Assembly: GCA_040879785.1 (NCBI GenBank)
Contig: JBBDJR010000006.1
Span: forward strand, 410-64,409
From: Candidatus Pacearchaeota archaeon
GTDB lineage: Archaea > Nanobdellota > Nanobdellia > Pacearchaeales > GW2011-AR1
Reading direction: 5' to 3'
DNA length: 64,000 bases
Below the pieces are notes generated by a model. That model did not search any database and had not been told where the DNA came from. It saw nothing but the letters and a program-made list of their open reading frames with translations. The position numbers and the translations under genes were made by a program. Each line of letters opens with the position of its first letter. Position 1 is the first letter of the stretch. Below, one piece after another: positions 6,299 through 63,558 of this stretch.

Positions 6299-6470
6299 TG
6301 AGCTTTTACTATGATTTCTTAAACAGGATATAGTTGCTCGCTCCGCTCGCAGATTTCCTAAACAATTAATATAATTAAATGAAAAACAAACGTGGATTAT
6401 AGTTAACGGGTTGGGAGGGTGGGATTTATTAAACACAAAAGACTAATTAAACAAATCCACACAAAAAAGA
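6299..6470 (+). repeat. Dispersed intergenic repeat, copy 1, with G-quadruplex motif
   Basis: Aligns by eye with 63028-63200. The two copies share the 17-mer TGCTCGCTCCGCTCGCA (6335-6351) and GGGTTGGGAGGGTGGG (6408-6423). Confidence 0.6.
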
Positions 6471-6475
6471 ACAAA

Positions 6476-6483
6476 TTTATAAA
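6476..6483 (+). promoter_or_regulatory. TATA box (TTTATAAA) for the tRNA-Ile leader transcript
   Basis: The consensus box lies ~28-35 nt upstream of the first leader module at 6511. Confidence 0.5.
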
Positions 6484-6510
6484 CATTATTCAGGTCTAAA
6501 AGTTTGTAAC

Positions 6511-6685
6511 GAGCCTGTAGCTCTAGTTTGGCTACACTTAGACGAACTAGTAGTGAAAGCAAATACAACAAGCCTGTAACTCTAAGCCGACCACGCTTGG
6601 GCGGTTTTGTAGTGTCAGGCGAACGAAGTGAGCCTGTAGCTCTTTCCTAAGTAACGTCTGGAAACGTAGCGAAGGCGAATAAAAC
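6511..6685 (+). repeat. Three tandem ~59-bp units, each starting with the first 13 nt of tRNA-Ile
   Basis: GAGCCTGTAGCTC occurs at 6511 and 6630, and AGCCTGTAACTC at 6571, each followed by 43-47 nt of GC-rich sequence. The fourth copy at 6686 is the real tRNA. Confidence 0.8.
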
Positions 6686-6836
6686 GAGCCTGTAGCTCAG
6701 TCTGGTCAGAGCGCTGGTCTTATAAGAATACAACCCGTAAGGATTGTAATCTCTTGGAAATCAAAATTTGTCCTGGTCGCAGGTGGTTTTCATCTAAGAG
6801 AGCCAGAGGTCCTCGGTTCAAATCCGGGCAGGCTCA
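6686..6836 (+). tRNA. tRNA-Ile (anticodon TAT) with 76-nt intron (6725-6800)
   Basis: Hand-folded: acceptor GAGCCTG/CAGGCTC, D arm GCTC..GAGC, anticodon stem CTGGT/GCCAG, loop CTTATA|A, T arm CTCGG-TTCAAAT-CCGGG, discriminator A. No CCA is encoded. Confidence 0.8.
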
Positions 6837-6891
6837 TAGGATTTGAATCTCGGTTTAGTGTGGATTTTTCTTTAGGGAAAAGACGCATTAG

Positions 6892-6940
6892 GCCAGAATC
6901 TCGTTAGAGATGTTCTGAGCCCAAATCCGGGCAGGCTCAT
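6892..6940 (+). pseudogene. Degenerate second copy of the tRNA-Ile 3' half
   Basis: GCCAGA...CAAATCCGGGCAGGCTCAT; the last 19 nt are identical to 6819-6837. The T stem is not foldable. Confidence 0.6.
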
Positions 6941-6977
6941 GATAATAAAAAGTTAGTAAAATAAAGCAACTAGAAAA

Positions 6978-8134: not shown

Positions 8135-8187
8135 GCCCTTGGCCGACGTCGCTACGGCAGTCTAGGGTGAGCGAACGAAGTGAGTGA
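8135..8187 (+). other. GC-rich leader module plus GAGCGAACGAAGTGAGTGA linker
   Basis: GCCCTTGGCCGACGTCGCTACGGCAGTCTAGGGT differs at 2 of 34 positions from 39917-39950. The linker is identical to 40006-40024. Confidence 0.6.
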
Positions 8188-8276
8188 GCCCCGATAGTTC
8201 AGTGGGTTTCTTTTTTAGAAAAAAAGAAACTACAATGGTAGAAAAAACTAAGATTGGAACTATCGGAAATCCAAAT
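8188..8276 (+). repeat. 15-nt tRNA-Glu 5' fragment plus 74-bp insert
   Basis: GCCCCGATAGTTCAG at 8188-8202 is identical to 8277-8291. The insert holds an 11-bp-stem hairpin (8206-8230) and GGAACTATCGG (8256-8266), antisense to the tRNA 5' region. Confidence 0.7.
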
Positions 8277-8394
8277 GCCCCGATAGTTCAGAGGCCAAGA
8301 ATGCGGCCCTTTCAAATAGCAACGCTTTGACGTTTGATTCAAAGTGAAGCTTTGAAGCACGGCCGTGACCCGGGTTCGAATCCCGGTCGGGGCG
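8277..8394 (+). tRNA. tRNA-Glu (anticodon TTC) with 45-nt intron (8315-8359)
   Basis: Acceptor GCCCCGA/TCGGGGC, D arm GTTC..GAAT, anticodon stem CGGCC/GGCCG, loop CTTTCA, T arm CCGGG-TTCGAAT-CCCGG. Confidence 0.9.
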
Positions 8395-36171: not shown

Positions 36172-36205
36172 CTAAATTAACACGCGCGTTTTATAAATGT
36201 TAGCA

Positions 36206-36274
36206 AGCCTGTGTTGGGAGTTGAATGAGAACCTCCTGCGGGTTCCTCACACCTCCAGCCTCCCAACTCCAAAA
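36206..36274 (-). repeat. Degenerate second copy of the tRNA-Thr 3' end, forming a hairpin
   Basis: 36206-36225 matches 36275-36294 at 19 of 20 positions. On the minus strand GTTGGGAG pairs with CTCCCAAC. Confidence 0.6.
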
Positions 36275-36391
36275 AGCCTGTGCTGGGAGTTGAACCCAGG
36301 ACCTCGTCATTTTTGGATTTCTTTAAGTACCGAACTTTTCTAAAGCTAGGCATACCAATGACGCGCTCTACCTAATCTGAGCTACACAGGC
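36275..36391 (-). tRNA. tRNA-Thr (anticodon GGT) with 42-nt intron (36311-36352)
   Basis: Acceptor GCCTGTG/CACAGGC, D arm GCTC..GAGC, anticodon stem CGTCA/TGACG, loop TTGGTA|A, T arm CTGGG-TTCAACT-CCCAG, discriminator T. Confidence 0.85.
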
Positions 36392-36454
36392 ACACTACGT
36401 TCGCCTGTTCGCTACAAAACCGCCCTGGCGAGGTCGGCTTAGAGTTACACAGGC
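36392..36454 (-). other. Leader module starting with a tRNA-Thr 5' fragment, ending in a GCGAACGTAGTGT linker
   Basis: The minus strand reads GCCTGTGTAACTCTAAGCCGACC..GGGCGGTTTTGTAG..CAGGCGAACGTAGTGT. It is homologous to module 6571-6629. Confidence 0.6.
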
Positions 36455-38447: not shown

Positions 38448-39390
38448 TAAGATATATAAATGTATTTTTCTTTAATTATTTATGAGACTGAAATTAAAAA
38501 AGGGAAAACAAAGAGAACTAATAAAAGAATTTAAGGATGAAAAAAGATTAACATGGATTAATCTAGCAGACCTTCTTGGGATAAAATATGGTAGGCTAAA
38601 AGCATATGTTGATGAGACATCCTTAATTCCAAAAAGTTTTTATGAAAAACTTGATACAAAAAAGAAATTTTCAAAATATATAATTGAAGAGATGGTAGAG
38701 GGTTGGGGGAAGATAAAGGGAGGCAAAAATTCGGGAGGAAGTACTAAAGATATTAGTTTTCCAAGAGAATCAGGAAGTTTAGCAGAATTTTTTGGTATAA
38801 TGCTTGGTGACGGCAATTCGCATAAAACAGCATTTTATAATTCTAGAAAAGATAAAAGAGGAACCTATATGATAAGAATAGTTGGTGATTCAAGATATGA
38901 TAAAGACTATCTAATAAAATATGTAAAGCCATTGATTAGAAAGTTGTTTAACATAAATGTTCGTTCAGGCAAATTTAAGAAACAAAATGCTATTTATATT
39001 GAAGCACACAGTCGTCAACTAATAGAATTTTTAGAAGCAAAAGAATTTAAGCCAGGGAATAAAATAAAGAATAAATTGACAATTCCTGGATGGATACTTA
39101 ACGAAGAAACTTATCTGAAACACTGCCTTAGAGGTCTTATAGACACTGATGGGAGTATCCATAAAATGTCTAACAAGGATCCAAAATTAATTAGAATAAG
39201 TTTTAAGAATCATAATAAAACACTTCTTAAGAATACTAAGGAAGCATTTATCCAAATTGGATTCAATCCGTCAAAGATAATATTGAACAATGTTTTTTAC
39301 ATATCAAGACAGAGTGAAATAAAGAAATATTTAAAAGAGATTGGATTCTCCAACAATAGACATAAGGAAAGGTTAAAAGCTCTTAGAAAA
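38448..39390 (+). mobile_element. Insertion block carrying a LAGLIDADG endonuclease gene between the tRNA-Gln fragment and the intact tRNA-Gln
   Basis: Bounded by the imperfect 22-26-nt tRNA-derived direct repeat. Contains its own A/T box (ATATATAAA) ~25 nt before ATG 38482. Confidence 0.55.
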
Positions 39391-39405
39391 AGCCCCATCG
39401 TCTAG
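38482..39405 (+). CDS. Double-motif LAGLIDADG homing endonuclease with N-terminal HTH-like extension
   Basis: LAEFFGIMLGDGNS and LRGLIDTDGSI motifs ~115 aa apart. The stop codon TAG (39403-39405) lies inside the tRNA-Gln D arm. Confidence 0.85.
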   Translation: MRLKLKKGKQRELIKEFKDEKRLTWINLADLLGIKYGRLKAYVDETSLIPKSFYEKLDTKKKFSKYIIEEMVEGWGKIKGGKNSGGSTKDISFPRESGSLAEFFGIMLGDGNSHKTAFYNSRKDKRGTYMIRIVGDSRYDKDYLIKYVKPLIRKLFNINVRSGKFKKQNAIYIEAHSRQLIEFLEAKEFKPGNKIKNKLTIPGWILNEETYLKHCLRGLIDTDGSIHKMSNKDPKLIRISFKNHNKTLLKNTKEAFIQIGFNPSKIILNNVFYISRQSEIKKYLKEIGFSNNRHKERLKALRKSPIV

Positions 39406-39463
39406 CGGTCAAAGATCTGGCCCTCTGGAGGCTAGGACCCAGGTTCGAATCCTGGTGGGGCTA
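39391..39463 (+). tRNA. tRNA-Gln (anticodon CTG), no intron
   Basis: Acceptor AGCCCCA/TGGGGCT (A1-U72), D arm GTCT..AGAT, anticodon stem TGGCC/GGCTA, loop CTCTGGA, T arm CCAGG-TTCGAAT-CCTGG. Confidence 0.85.
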
Positions 39464-39774: not shown

Positions 39775-39868
39775 TAAATCCTTCTGGACTAATTAAAAAT
39801 TACTCTACTAATAATCATATTAAGCAATCTTTAAAAACAAAATTCTCTCTTAATCTTTAGTTTTGTTT

Positions 39869-40024
39869 GCCCTGATTTTACTAAGCCAGGGCAGATTGGA
39901 TGAATGCAAGGTACAAGCCCTTGGCCGACGTCGCTATGGCGGTCTAGGGTGAACGAAGCGTAGCGAAGTGAGCCCTGATTTAGCCACGCTTGGACGAAGC
40001 AGGGTGAGCGAACGAAGTGAGTGA
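39869..40024 (+). other. Three GC-rich hairpin modules plus linkers forming the tRNA-Glu(CUC) leader
   Basis: M1 39869-39892 (GCCCTG..CAGGGC), M2 39917-39950 (GCCCT..AGGGT), M3 39972-40005 (GCCCTG..CAGGGT). Linkers are GAACGAAGCGTAGCGAAGTG and GAGCGAACGAAGTGAGTGA. Confidence 0.6.
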
Positions 40025-40142
40025 GCCCCCGTAGTTCAGAGGCCAAGAATGCGGCCCTCTCAAATGGCAAAGCTTTGACGTTTGATTCAAAGTGAAGCTT
40101 TGAAGTACGGCCGTGACCCGAGTTCGAATCTCGGCGGGGGCG
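40025..40142 (+). tRNA. tRNA-Glu (anticodon CTC) with 45-nt intron (40063-40107)
   Basis: Acceptor GCCCCCG/CGGGGGC, the same D and anticodon arms as the 8277 copy, loop CTCTCA, T arm CCGAG-TTCGAAT-CTCGG. Confidence 0.9.
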
Positions 40143-63027: not shown

Positions 63028-63200
63028 AGATTTTTACTCCAACTCATTAAACAGAAATATACTGCTCGCTCCGCTCGCAAATTACCAAAACAACTAAAAA
63101 AATTAAATAAAAAACAAACGCGGATTTATGGTTAACATGGGTCGGGAGGGCGGGACCTAAGAACTTATTAAGAATAGGATACTAATTAAACAAACCCGAA
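63028..63200 (+). repeat. Dispersed intergenic repeat, copy 2, with G-quadruplex motif
   Basis: TGCTCGCTCCGCTCGCA (63063-63079) and GGGTCGGGAGGGCGGG (63139-63154). Collinear with 6299-6470. Confidence 0.6.
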
Positions 63201-63249
63201 TACAACGGAAGCTTTTTAAACAAAGTTATGTAGGAAATATAACTAAAAA

Positions 63250-63558
63250 ATGGAATTTTGTCCTAAATGTGGTGCAGTCCTTGTCCAAAAAACAAAGAGA
63301 GACGGATGTCCCAGGTGCAATTATTCTTCAAAAACTAAGGTCAAGCTAAAAACCTCTGAAAAAATTGGGGAGAAAAAGAGAATTAATGTCGTTTCTGAAA
63401 AAGACTCTGAAGTCCATCCCGTAATAGAGGAAAAATGTCCTAAATGCAACAATAAAAAAGCTTATTTCTGGACAATGCAAACACGCGCGGCAGACGAAAC
63501 AGAAACAAAATTCTTCAAATGCACAAAATGCGCAAACACCTGGAGAGACTATCAATAG
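63250..63558 (+). CDS. tfs: Transcription factor S (TFIIS-like Zn-ribbon)
   Basis: CPKC..CPRC N-ribbon; CPKCNNKKAYFWTMQTRAADETETKFFKCTKCANTWR C-ribbon. Confidence 0.9.
   Translation: MEFCPKCGAVLVQKTKRDGCPRCNYSSKTKVKLKTSEKIGEKKRINVVSEKDSEVHPVIEEKCPKCNNKKAYFWTMQTRAADETETKFFKCTKCANTWRDYQ

Follow-up and report, generated by a model that had tools for sequence, protein, structure and literature searches.

The stretch of DNA considered here, called the window, comprises 64,000 nucleotides (nt) of a Candidatus Pacearchaeota archaeon (assembly GCA_040879785.1, contig JBBDJR010000006.1, positions 410 to 64,409) and carries a tRNA-Ile(UAU) gene whose first 13 nt are repeated three times in its leader. 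Each of these 13-mers forms the 5' arm of a hairpin cassette, and the three cassettes, placed in tandem, belong to a family that is conserved among DPANN relatives. Cassettes precede four of the five tRNA genes of the window (Ile, Thr and both Glu; tRNA-Gln has none). Their anatomy, strand and tRNA specificity, conservation through compensatory changes and variation in copy number are directly supported. As to their role, slightly less than even weight is given to the reading that they are functional, transcribed, cis-acting leader elements, which keep the pairing of the leader within itself and display a signal for processing or folding. Both the cassette family and the 17-nt hairpin at its junctions appear to be undescribed. 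The searchable literature contained no description of the purine-rich block of the cassettes or of the junction 17-mer, and no account of such leaders.

In the tRNA-Ile leader, GAGCCTGTAGCTC occurs at 6511-6523 and 6630-6642 and then at 6686-6698, as nt 1-13 of the tRNA. The second leader copy, AAGCCTGTAACTC at 6570-6582, is identical to the 13-mer at 11/13 positions and has A for G at positions 1 and 10. Three such copies had been reported in a first-pass annotation of this DNA, and they are confirmed at 6511, 6570/6571 (with the two changes) and 6630, the fourth being the start of the tRNA itself. The start-to-start distances, the last one ending in the tRNA, are 59, 60 and 56 nt. When both strands are counted (128 kb), the 12-mer AGCCTGTAGCTC has three exact copies and one copy with one mismatch, all within 6512-6698, against a chance expectation of about 0.008 for the exact 12-mer; the best match elsewhere, a single one, has two mismatches. 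The repeat had been described as 13 nt long. This is correct for the exact core, but the similarity reaches 13-20 nt upstream of each 13-mer, giving a total of 26-33 nt (families D1 and D4), within which identity is only 65-85%. Tandem Repeats Finder gave no array in this leader at a score of 30 or more because the unit interiors differ: the three belong to different cassette types and are divergent homologs. An identical Ile locus is present in a separately assembled Logan contig of run SRR27977663. The features of the locus are as follows.

6476-6483, + strand: TATA-like box TTTATAAA of the tRNA-Ile transcription unit, starting 35 nt before cassette U1
6511-6569, + strand: cassette U1, with 5' arm 6511-6523, inner hairpin, 3' arm GTAGTGAAAGC and degenerate linker AAATACAAC
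6570-6629, + strand: cassette U2, with type A inner hairpin GCCGAC..GGCGG, 5' arm AAGCCTGTAACTC and 3' arm GTAGTGTCAGGC
6616-6636, + strand: U2/U3 junction hairpin CAGGC-GAACGAAGTGA-GCCTG, in which the 3' arm of U2 is joined to the 13-mer of U3
6630-6685, + strand: cassette U3, adjoining the tRNA, with a hairpin fold, type C inner hairpin CTC-TTTCC..GGAAA-CGTAGCG and degenerate linker GAATAAAAC
6686-6836, + strand: tRNA-Ile(UAU), with exon 1 at 6686-6724, intron at 6725-6800 (76 nt) and exon 2 at 6801-6836
6908-6940, + strand: tRNA-Ile 3'-end relic, 33 nt, 82% identical to 6805-6837

Rfam RF00005 matches 6686-6836 at 55.1 bits and shows a long insert within the anticodon loop of this tRNA, a gene that ARAGORN does not detect. 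A canonical bulge-helix-bulge (BHB) motif places the cuts after 6724 and 6800; removal of the intron leaves the anticodon loop CUUAUAA, and the gene is therefore tRNA-Ile(UAU). The UAU anticodon is rare for tRNA-Ile in archaea.

The cassettes were compared in a sample of 17 from about 8 genomes, the genome of origin being read over 64 kb. They are 35-90 nt long, occur in arrays of 1-3 and are built from the same parts. The 5' arm repeats 3-19 nt of the 5' end of the tRNA that follows; a variable inner hairpin comes next; the 3' arm is complementary to the 5' arm and resembles the D-stem and acceptor 3' strands of a tRNA. Usually the purine-rich block GCGAACGNAGUGA is the fourth part, ending 0-4 nt before tRNA +1. 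All cassettes folded singly (17/17) adopt one topology: the initial 1-3 nt are paired to those that directly precede the purine block, the inner hairpin is enclosed and the block remains unpaired. The sequence GCGAACGNAGTG has four exact occurrences in the window, each directly 5' of a tRNA or of a 5'-end copy and on the tRNA strand, where shuffling predicts 0.2.

The pairings of the Ile and Thr cassettes match nt 3-7 (the acceptor 5' strand) with (C)AGGC and GCUC (the D-stem 5' strand) with G(U)AG(C/U); between them, U8 and A9 lie opposite GA or GAA. The 3' arm is therefore D-stem- and acceptor-like, resembling the D-stem 3' strand with G26 and then part of the acceptor 3' strand. Such a cassette is in effect a tRNA without positions 27-65, in which a hairpin replaces the D loop. 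Acceptor-stem mimicry, one of the explanations offered in the first-pass annotation, agrees with this structure, as each 13-mer pairs with a downstream arm in the manner of the D-stem and acceptor 3' strands. Tracts of at least 12 nt copied from a tRNA 5' end were found in 6/18 DPANN tRNA loci, and a match of at least 10 nt in 1/3600 shuffles. For the two tRNA-Thr(GGU) loci, one in the window and one on the metagenome contig L029, the copy tracks its own tRNA at position 6 (U and C, respectively). In the alignment, GCUC of the Ile/Thr 13-mer (tRNA positions 10-13) corresponds by homology to GCCC/GCCU, with which the Glu and Arg cassettes begin, so that the tRNA-derived prefix may comprise nt 1-9, joined at a GCYC microhomology.

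The window is archaeal by its neighbouring proteins (a ThrRS with the archaeal editing domain, a family B DNA polymerase, CDC48) and has a G+C content of about 36%. An LD-carboxypeptidase gene adjoins tRNA-Glu, and its closest non-identical relatives reach at most 64% protein identity. The five tRNA genes start at 6686, 8277, 36391, 39391 and 40025. Insertions of 44-77 nt interrupt the anticodon loop in four of them, the Ile insertion being the one confirmed as a BHB intron, and ARAGORN finds only tRNA-Gln. The cassettes of the remaining loci and their tRNAs are listed below.

8135-8186, + strand: type A cassette of the tRNA-Glu(UUC) leader, containing the GAGCGAACGAAGTGAGTGA block; a training member of the covariance model R1, 80 bits
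8187-8276, + strand: type B cassette in the same leader, with AT-rich hairpins and the perfect 10-nt antisense GAACTATCGG
8277-8394, + strand: tRNA-Glu(UUC) with intron, Rfam 51.5 bits
36392..36454, - strand: type A cassette of tRNA-Thr(GGU), 5' arm GCCTGTGTAACTC, 12/13 identical to tRNA nt 1-13
36275..36391, - strand: tRNA-Thr(GGU) with intron, Rfam 52.2 bits
39869-39892, + strand: hairpin, first of three cassettes before tRNA-Glu(CUC)
39917-39971, + strand: type A cassette, second of the three
39972-40024, + strand: type A' cassette, third of the three
40025-40142, + strand: tRNA-Glu(CUC) with intron, Rfam 48.9 bits in a local search, missed by the whole-window run

The leader of tRNA-Thr has the order GCCTGTGTAACTC-TAAGCCGACCTCGCCAGGGCGGTTTT-GTAGCGAACAGGC-GAACGTAGTGT, and its cassette (36454..36392) is about 85% identical to U2 as aligned by eye. 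U2 has a minimum free energy (MFE) of -23.1 kcal/mol (z = -2.8), and U1 folds as a hairpin from nt 3 on, its last 9 nt being unpaired. The type B cassette has as its 5' arm an exact 15-nt copy of tRNA-Glu nt 1-15 (18/19 over nt 1-19); its MFE is -27 kcal/mol (z = -4.7), equalled by 0/200 shuffles.

The covariance model R1 was built from 4 type A cassettes and run over the window with filters off. It gave six significant matches, in tRNA leaders only, with E-values from 1.7e-22 to 1.3e-4.

6520-6556, + strand: Ile U1, E = 8e-5
6579-6634, + strand: Ile U2, E = 1.3e-8
8135-8190, + strand: leader of tRNA-Glu(UUC)
36445..36389, - strand: tRNA-Thr, E = 1.3e-4
39917-39957, + strand: leader of tRNA-Glu(CUC), E = 3.7e-10
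39972-40027, + strand: leader of tRNA-Glu(CUC), E = 1.9e-21

Beyond these the best E-value in the window is 0.09, and a weak match lies at 39867-39894. Over 183 kb of DPANN loci R1 recovered all of the cassettes identified by eye and nothing but known cassettes, and it had no match in the cassette-less relatives L004, L009 and L013 of this set. The reverse strand scores far lower than the sense strand (11 vs 80 bits). Together with the strand-specific G.U and G.A pairs, this favours an RNA structure of the sense strand.

Covariation was assessed on an alignment of 14 R1 matches from 9 loci. Paired cells amount to 88.7%, compared with 74.1% in shuffles, and in 9/14 pairs both partners vary. The score for covariation is 0.374 (shuffled, 0.186), a value reached by 0/500 shuffles, and every covariation measure collapses when the partners are slid by 1-3 columns. 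With homologs in several genomes and compensatory changes, the cassettes behave as a conserved structured RNA element in this model-fitted alignment. Two further pairings were considered and dropped. A pseudoknot joining the apical CGCY loop of type A to RGCG of the block covaries inside the window and is absent in L055 and L057; leader-trailer pairing, drawn by hand with 10/11 pairs for tRNA-Glu(UUC), exists at none of the other loci and is regarded as a coincidence. The introns of both tRNA-Glu genes (8312-8337 and 40060-40085) give weak R1 matches (E 0.1-0.3), each a hairpin followed by UGAAGC, a possible sign that introns and cassettes are related. For the Ile intron, homology to the leader, suggested by the shared AATACAAC, was rejected: the local alignment is no better than shuffles (p = 0.05-0.5).

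A strict cassette pattern searched in 185,579 species genomes (one per species) gave one chance match, in a GC-rich bacterial gene. The metagenome search, which asked for the block followed by a tRNA-like 5' end, returned 33 loci. Real cassettes lie on 9 low-GC contigs, 7 of them distinct; the high-GC matches are mostly chance hits in coding DNA. The tRNAs with block and cassette on the metagenome contigs are the following.

L029: tRNA-Thr(GGU)
L031 (same as L044): tRNA-Thr(CGU)
L039 (same as L050): tRNA-Thr(UGU)
L038 and L055: tRNA-Arg(UCU)
L057: tRNA-Arg(CCU)
L035: tRNA-Glu(UUC)

The cassette-bearing tRNAs (Ile-UAU, Thr, Arg and Glu) all begin with GCC or GAGCC. The Arg cassette of L055 and the Glu cassette of the window are identical over their last 26 nt. 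L035 also carries an ortholog of tRNA-Ile(UAU), preceded by a single cassette, GAGCCTGTAGCTC-TTTCC-CGAGTCTATGAA-GGAAA-CGAGTGAAAGC-TTCAT. In comparison with U3 of the window, the 13-mer and the TTTCC/GGAAA stems are 100% identical and the loop is identical at 3/12 positions; the intron measures 123 nt on L035 and 76 nt in the window. Unit number therefore varies between genomes, and the paired parts are constrained. The comparison of unit number across relatives that had been proposed in the first-pass annotation thus yields one unit against three, and the refuting condition set there, that the 13-mers be no more conserved than the flanking sequence, did not hold: 13-mer and stems are kept while the loop is randomised.

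The position of the promoter bears on transcription. From the start of a TATA-like box to the first nucleotide of the cassettes, the distance is 31-35 nt in five loci (Ile U1, L029, L038, L055 and L035-Ile) and 40-44 nt in five further ones. In the cassette-less tRNAs of L057 and L055 the box, as read from the sequence, apparently stands at about 31-35 nt from +1. The first copy therefore often occupies the +1 place of a leaderless gene. For tRNA-Ile, transcription probably starts near 6506-6511, at or just before the first copy. On L057, a cassette begins 12 nt after one tRNA and lies directly before the next, with no room for a promoter, and must therefore be co-transcribed. Such geometry suggests that the cassettes are transcribed as part of the tRNA leader. 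The earlier placement of the copies in a pre-tRNA leader is upheld on these geometric grounds, by the distance from TATA box to tRNA and by the L057 analog between two tRNAs.

The purine block is also the loop of a predicted junction hairpin, GGC-GA-AC-GNA-GU-GA-GCC, which occupies positions -14 to +3 of the tRNAs and consists of a GGC/GCC stem, tandem G.A pairs, an A-U pair and a C-G closed GNA triloop. Its stem is composed of the end of the cassette 3' arm (5' half) and of the initial 3-7 nt of either the tRNA or the following copy (3' half). The 3' arm is thus predicted to have two mutually exclusive partners, the upstream copy or the 5' end of the next copy or of the real tRNA; for this reason the 5' arm would have to resemble the tRNA 5' end. 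Neither this predicted clamping of the real tRNA 5' end nor the occurrence of cassettes before a subset of tRNAs genome-wide had been noted in the first-pass annotation. The U2/U3 hairpin at 6616-6636 contains the tandem G.A pairs and a C-G closed GAA triloop, with a block motif match at 6619-6630 inside it; the corresponding hairpin of tRNA-Thr is ACAGGC-GAACGTAGTGT-GCCTGT.

The two pairings of the 3' arm are energy predictions. RNAfold gave junction hairpins of -4.7 to -12.5 kcal/mol in 9/10 canonical-block junctions, the lowest value belonging to U2/U3, and none for L031. In the full precursors, the fold in which the upstream copy enters the acceptor stem is iso-energetic or better in 3/6, and the nascent tRNA-Thr transcript has the junction hairpin as its MFE structure. 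Nearest-neighbour energies favour the closed cassette over the isolated junction hairpin by 3-11 kcal/mol in every case, and the cassette is transcribed before the junction partner. The order GGC-GA-[ACGNAGU]-GA-GCC corresponds on paper to a K-loop of the L7Ae-binding kink-turn class; nearest-neighbour folding prefers a form free of bulges, in which a symmetric 2x2 G.A loop is combined with A-U and C-G pairs and a triloop.

The junction 17-mer recurs in DPANN leaders and in viral contigs. In the latter (IMG/VR), GGCGAACGNAGTGNGCC has at least 120 matches, and GGC-GAACGNAGTGA-GCC was found at 89 or more distinct places, 74 of them, among the matches listed, outside open reading frames (ORFs) of at least 90 aa. 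Likewise among the matches listed, the free second position is A in 60/62 distinct low-GC contexts and the stem is lengthened past GGC/GCC in 45/62. The loci are L062-L141 and more, for example L077:7122-7138, L083:3299-3315 and L069:1312-1328. The junction 17-mer is thus a real and widespread viral intergenic hairpin. A looser GC-rich pattern gave chance matches only in the viral contigs. Some viral copies of the 17-mer stand beside TTATCCACA DnaA-box-like repeats, and many follow AT-rich TATATA stretches. No Rfam entry corresponds to the 17-mer.

Leaders of a related appearance were seen on Acidobacteria-like contigs with CCA-encoded tRNAs (L054:190-520, - strand, and L034:5680-5860). A tRNA-Gly(CCC) gene is preceded there by two near-identical 124-nt units, each composed of tRNA nt 1-32 and a 90-nt element (GTGAGCGAAGCGGGAGCC...). 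The GTGAGCGAAGCGGGAGCC element also forms a tRNA-Thr leader, with a GCCGAT/ATCGGC stem and the GAACGAAGTGA loop, and this leader closes the same loop on tRNA nt 1-6. These leaders are a parallel phenomenon in bacteria and not homologous cassettes.

Other partial tRNA copies and repeats surround these genes. Downstream of tRNA-Ile, 6917-6939 reads GAGCC + CAAATCCGGGCA + GGCTCA, a tRNA-Ile relic with positions ~6-56 deleted whose acceptor strands still pair; for the fold of the trailer (6837-6945), z is -3.25. Transcription may end ahead of the relic at 6908-6940, at a T5 run (about 6865-6869). This relic is missing from the L035 ortholog and hence sporadic. Copies of tRNA 3' ends 60-100 nt 3' of the gene occur in the window at 6908-6940 and at ~36232..36205 (- strand), and behind tRNA-Arg of L057. 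On L055 (4747-4840, - strand), a 20-nt copy of the tRNA-Met 5' end is joined to ACTCCTCA, a 3'-end copy, about 85 nt upstream of the gene; this internally deleted relic sits 5' of the TATA box, outside the leader. A repeat of ~170 nt at 6313-6470, directly 5' of the Ile promoter, has a second copy at 63040-63215, upstream of a gene with its ATG at 63251. It contains GCTCGCTCCGCTCGC and GGGTTGGGAGGGTGGGA and has no Rfam match, and the Logan contig ends at the second copy. The entire tRNA-Ile unit is flanked by a 14-nt inverted repeat (6453-6466 / 6854-6867, 93% complementary; borderline, with a chance of about 0.05 by a rough count). At tRNA-Gln (39391-39463), the first 15 nt are overlapped by an ORF with a LAGLIDADG_3 domain (38482-39405). 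Among the relatives without cassettes, L004 (16149-19430) carries a reverse transcriptase, an Rfam RT-16 RNA (70.8 bits) and a phage-type integrase beside tRNA-Glu, and L013 encodes another integrase.

If the cassettes are functional leader elements, the following course can be proposed. They would have originated as partial or internally deleted tRNA copies, followed by spread or duplication between loci. During transcription, a cassette would close on its own 5' arm, so that the leader is self-contained and the tRNA is free to fold; pairing of the 3' arm with the next copy or with the real tRNA 5' end would instead form the junction hairpin. The conserved block might serve as a recognition or folding element for precursor processing, and the enzyme of 5' maturation, presumably RNase P, would remove the cassettes together with the leader. 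A function in the control of folding or processing is suggested by this arrangement.

Several points weigh against this interpretation. tRNA relics with internal deletions are found 3' of tRNAs and 5' of a promoter as well, as would fit a mutational by-product. One relative, at about 64% protein identity, has a tRNA-Glu with a short plain leader and no cassette; the element is therefore dispensable and not universal. Four cassettes (U1, U3, L035-Ile and type B) have no purine block or a degenerate one, and the block is therefore not required in every case. Single-cassette folds have modest z-scores (+1.5 to -4.7), and the whole Ile leader has z = -1.44; the structural case rests on consistency and comparison, not on folding energy. 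Finally, the covariation alignment was fitted to R1 itself, and the search requirement of a block beside a tRNA biases the apparent tRNA association outside the window.

The alternative that survives best, unlikely though far from negligible, is non-functional debris: partial tandem duplications or internally deleted tRNA copies, or remnants of attachment (att) site duplication by elements that entered the tRNA 5' half, whose hairpin shape would be kept only since an unpaired 5' copy or antisense strand would disturb tRNA folding. The relics at 6917-6939 and upstream of tRNA-Met on L055, the sporadic 3' copies behind tRNA-Thr and L057 tRNA-Arg, the copy number of one versus three and the relative without cassettes all suit such an origin. 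So do the bacterial contig with two near-identical units starting with tRNA-Gly nt 1-32 and the integrases on L004 (beside a tRNA) and L013, considering that pTN3-like integrases target tRNA 5' halves (PMC8371274). Debris, however, does not account for the same cassette types and an invariant 12-26-nt block before different tRNAs in at least 7 genomes, nor for conserved stems with randomised loops and compensatory changes. The Ile interiors are divergent homologs and not recent duplicates; an integrated element would not fit into an interior of only 46 nt, and three deletions in succession that each end at the same size are implausible. The first-pass annotation had considered a scar of repeated D-loop insertion or a plain tandem duplication, neither of which explains the conserved GCGAACGNAGUGA block or the same types before different tRNAs in different genomes.

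A more far-reaching reading, which has a small but real chance of being correct, is that the cassettes and the GGC-GAACGNAGUGA-GCC hairpin are together a hitherto unknown cis device for the regulation or processing of tRNA precursors, either a register-shifting decoy/antisense switch or a mark of the 5' cleavage site for a factor recognizing the GA-rich hairpin. The hairpin module would then be shared across domains, given its occurrence in the Acidobacteria-like leader and in viral intergenic regions. The proposal of a conformational switch by itself has a low probability. Here the pairing register would free or clamp the tRNA 5' strand and so tune maturation, perhaps via a factor binding the GA hairpin. 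It draws on the equal complementarity of the 3' arm to both copies, on the junction state of the nascent tRNA-Thr transcript and on the iso-energetic or better alternative fold in half of the full precursors. The junction hairpin is moreover the most conserved part, stands free in viral intergenic regions with the strong preference for A among the matches listed, and has a counterpart in the Acidobacteria-like tRNA-Thr leader closing on nt 1-6. Yet the closed cassette is the more stable form in every case and is favoured by the co-transcriptional order, the canonical loop is missing from several cassettes, and the arrays could equally be neutral expansions.

The cassettes might also be stand-alone RNAs of ~50 nt that ride with tRNAs, are released by tRNA processing and act in trans, which is improbable. 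Conservation of the type A cassette and block across genomes and different downstream tRNAs would fit such RNAs, and the inter-tRNA position on L057 would give them defined ends. But the window holds no block-complementary target on either strand, the arms follow the 5' end of the downstream tRNA (GCCUGUG vs GCCUGCG in the two Thr loci), and no cassette lies away from a tRNA in the window or in the 183 kb of DPANN loci. A DNA-level element deserves no more credence, perhaps a little less. It would be a sense-strand DNA hairpin in replication, recombination, priming or a template switching that generates the repeats. The minihairpin class to which the junction core is similar is unusually stable in DNA, the 17-mer lies near TTATCCACA DnaA-box-like repeats in some viral contigs, and these tRNA genes have partial copies around them in direct as well as inverted orientation. 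RNA is nevertheless the better fit for a distance fixed to tRNA +1 and not to the promoter, for the many G.U pairs and for the constant co-orientation.

Hardly tenable is the model of a non-canonical intron or a split or permuted tRNA, with exon 1 proper formed by the first 13-mer and all that follows, as far as the last 13-mer, removed by the splicing endonuclease: the first copy does stand at leaderless +1 distance from the TATA box in five loci, much as appears to be so in the cassette-less tRNAs of L057 and L055, and an upstream copy can form the acceptor stem, but a scan for the canonical BHB form (3-nt bulge, 4-bp helix, 3-nt bulge, not relaxed HBh' forms) finds none at cassette borders while recovering introns in 5/10 loci (window Ile, L035-Ile, L035-Glu, L029-Thr and L039-Thr), the sole self-complementary register (AGCU) would turn the universal A14 into U, and the promoter is about 10 nt farther upstream in five loci, where leader removal would be needed anyway.

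Established element classes were considered as well. The likeness to a clustered regularly interspaced short palindromic repeat (CRISPR) array had been called superficial at first sight, and rightly, as such an array is excluded: there are 3 units, the last "repeat" is the tRNA, and the "spacers" are conserved structured hairpins of 23-26 nt common to loci and genomes. No Cas family was found among the 15 window ORFs scanned against Pfam, a scan that was not aimed at cas genes. The same ORFs contain no integrase, and duplication of an att site is contradicted by the 43-47 nt (75 nt in type B) that the repeats flank, which hold no ORF. A simple tandem repeat or recent tandem duplication does not fit three different interior types and the lack of a Tandem Repeats Finder array. 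The cassettes are not tRNAs according to Rfam RF00005, which has no match at 6511-6685 or 8135-8276 at E up to 10; at the gathering threshold Rfam finds only tRNAs in the window, and up to E = 10 nothing credible over the leaders. C/D-box or H/ACA guide RNAs were rejected for lack of boxes, the sole match being a weak snoR09 on the opposite strand (E = 0.55). The core motifs of integron attC sites, REP elements and IS200-type ends are absent on inspection.

The tRNA genes of DPANN archaea are already difficult to annotate, and their maturation is poorly understood; the related Nanoarchaeum is known to have no RNase P. If the functional reading is correct, a leader module that imitates the tRNA's own 5' end would represent a new layer of precursor architecture, for which alternative folds, defined cleavage products and stable leader RNAs are predicted. 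The cassettes show how tRNA-derived fragments get kept and reused, which bears on the origin of disrupted tRNA genes. In practice, R1 and the block GCGAACGNAGTGA can mark tRNA genes, with their correct 5' ends, in genomes of this kind. The 17-nt hairpin, widespread as it is in viral intergenic regions, merits separate study.

Among known systems, structured elements removed by processing include the haloarchaeal "t-element" upstream of 5S rRNA and the leader hairpins of rRNA/tRNA operons. The cassettes are similar to this class in being cis-encoded mimics of tRNA parts (acceptor and D stems) beside a mature RNA end, and probably in being co-transcribed and discarded. Unlike it, they copy the 5' end of the very tRNA downstream, lack T and anticodon arms, occur in arrays of 1-3 with a conserved GA-rich block and have no Rfam match. 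The plastid trnF(GAA) pseudogene arrays of Brassicaceae are tandem partial tRNA copies upstream of a functional tRNA. Partial copies stacked directly 5' of an intact gene, in lineage-variable number, are common to both. The trnF arrays, however, are recent near-identical duplicates without conserved non-tRNA modules, whereas the cassette interiors are divergent, structured, common to different tRNAs and genomes, and show compensatory changes. Attenuators and riboswitch platforms likewise have an arm with two mutually exclusive partners, an upstream decoy and a functional downstream sequence, as is predicted for the 3' arm. The controlled event would here be tRNA folding or 5' maturation and not termination or translation, and the pairings of the cassettes are predicted ones.

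Integrases of the pTN3-like kind use the 5' half of a tRNA as attB and leave a displaced 5' fragment behind (PMC8371274). Direct repeats of a tRNA end, and integrases near tRNAs in related contigs, recall such att duplications. In the cassettes, by contrast, the 23-75 nt between the repeats are conserved, form hairpins and include the antisense of the repeat; no element or integrase is present at cassette loci, and the promoter remains upstream. Disrupted archaeal tRNA genes comprise non-canonical introns and split or permuted tRNAs processed at BHB motifs (PMC4090602, PMC3978253). The cassettes share with them the extra sequence at intron-rich archaeal tRNA genes and a leader complementary to tRNA parts, and differ in having no canonical BHB at their borders and a downstream tRNA that is complete by itself. 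Minihairpins of the d(GCGAAGC) class, with a GNA triloop and sheared G.A pairs, are unusually stable in DNA. The junction core C-GNA-G flanked by tandem G.A is of the same kind, but it is part of a longer 17-mer, GGC-GAACGNAGUGA-GCC, which is located at -14 to +3 of tRNAs and recurs in viral intergenic regions.

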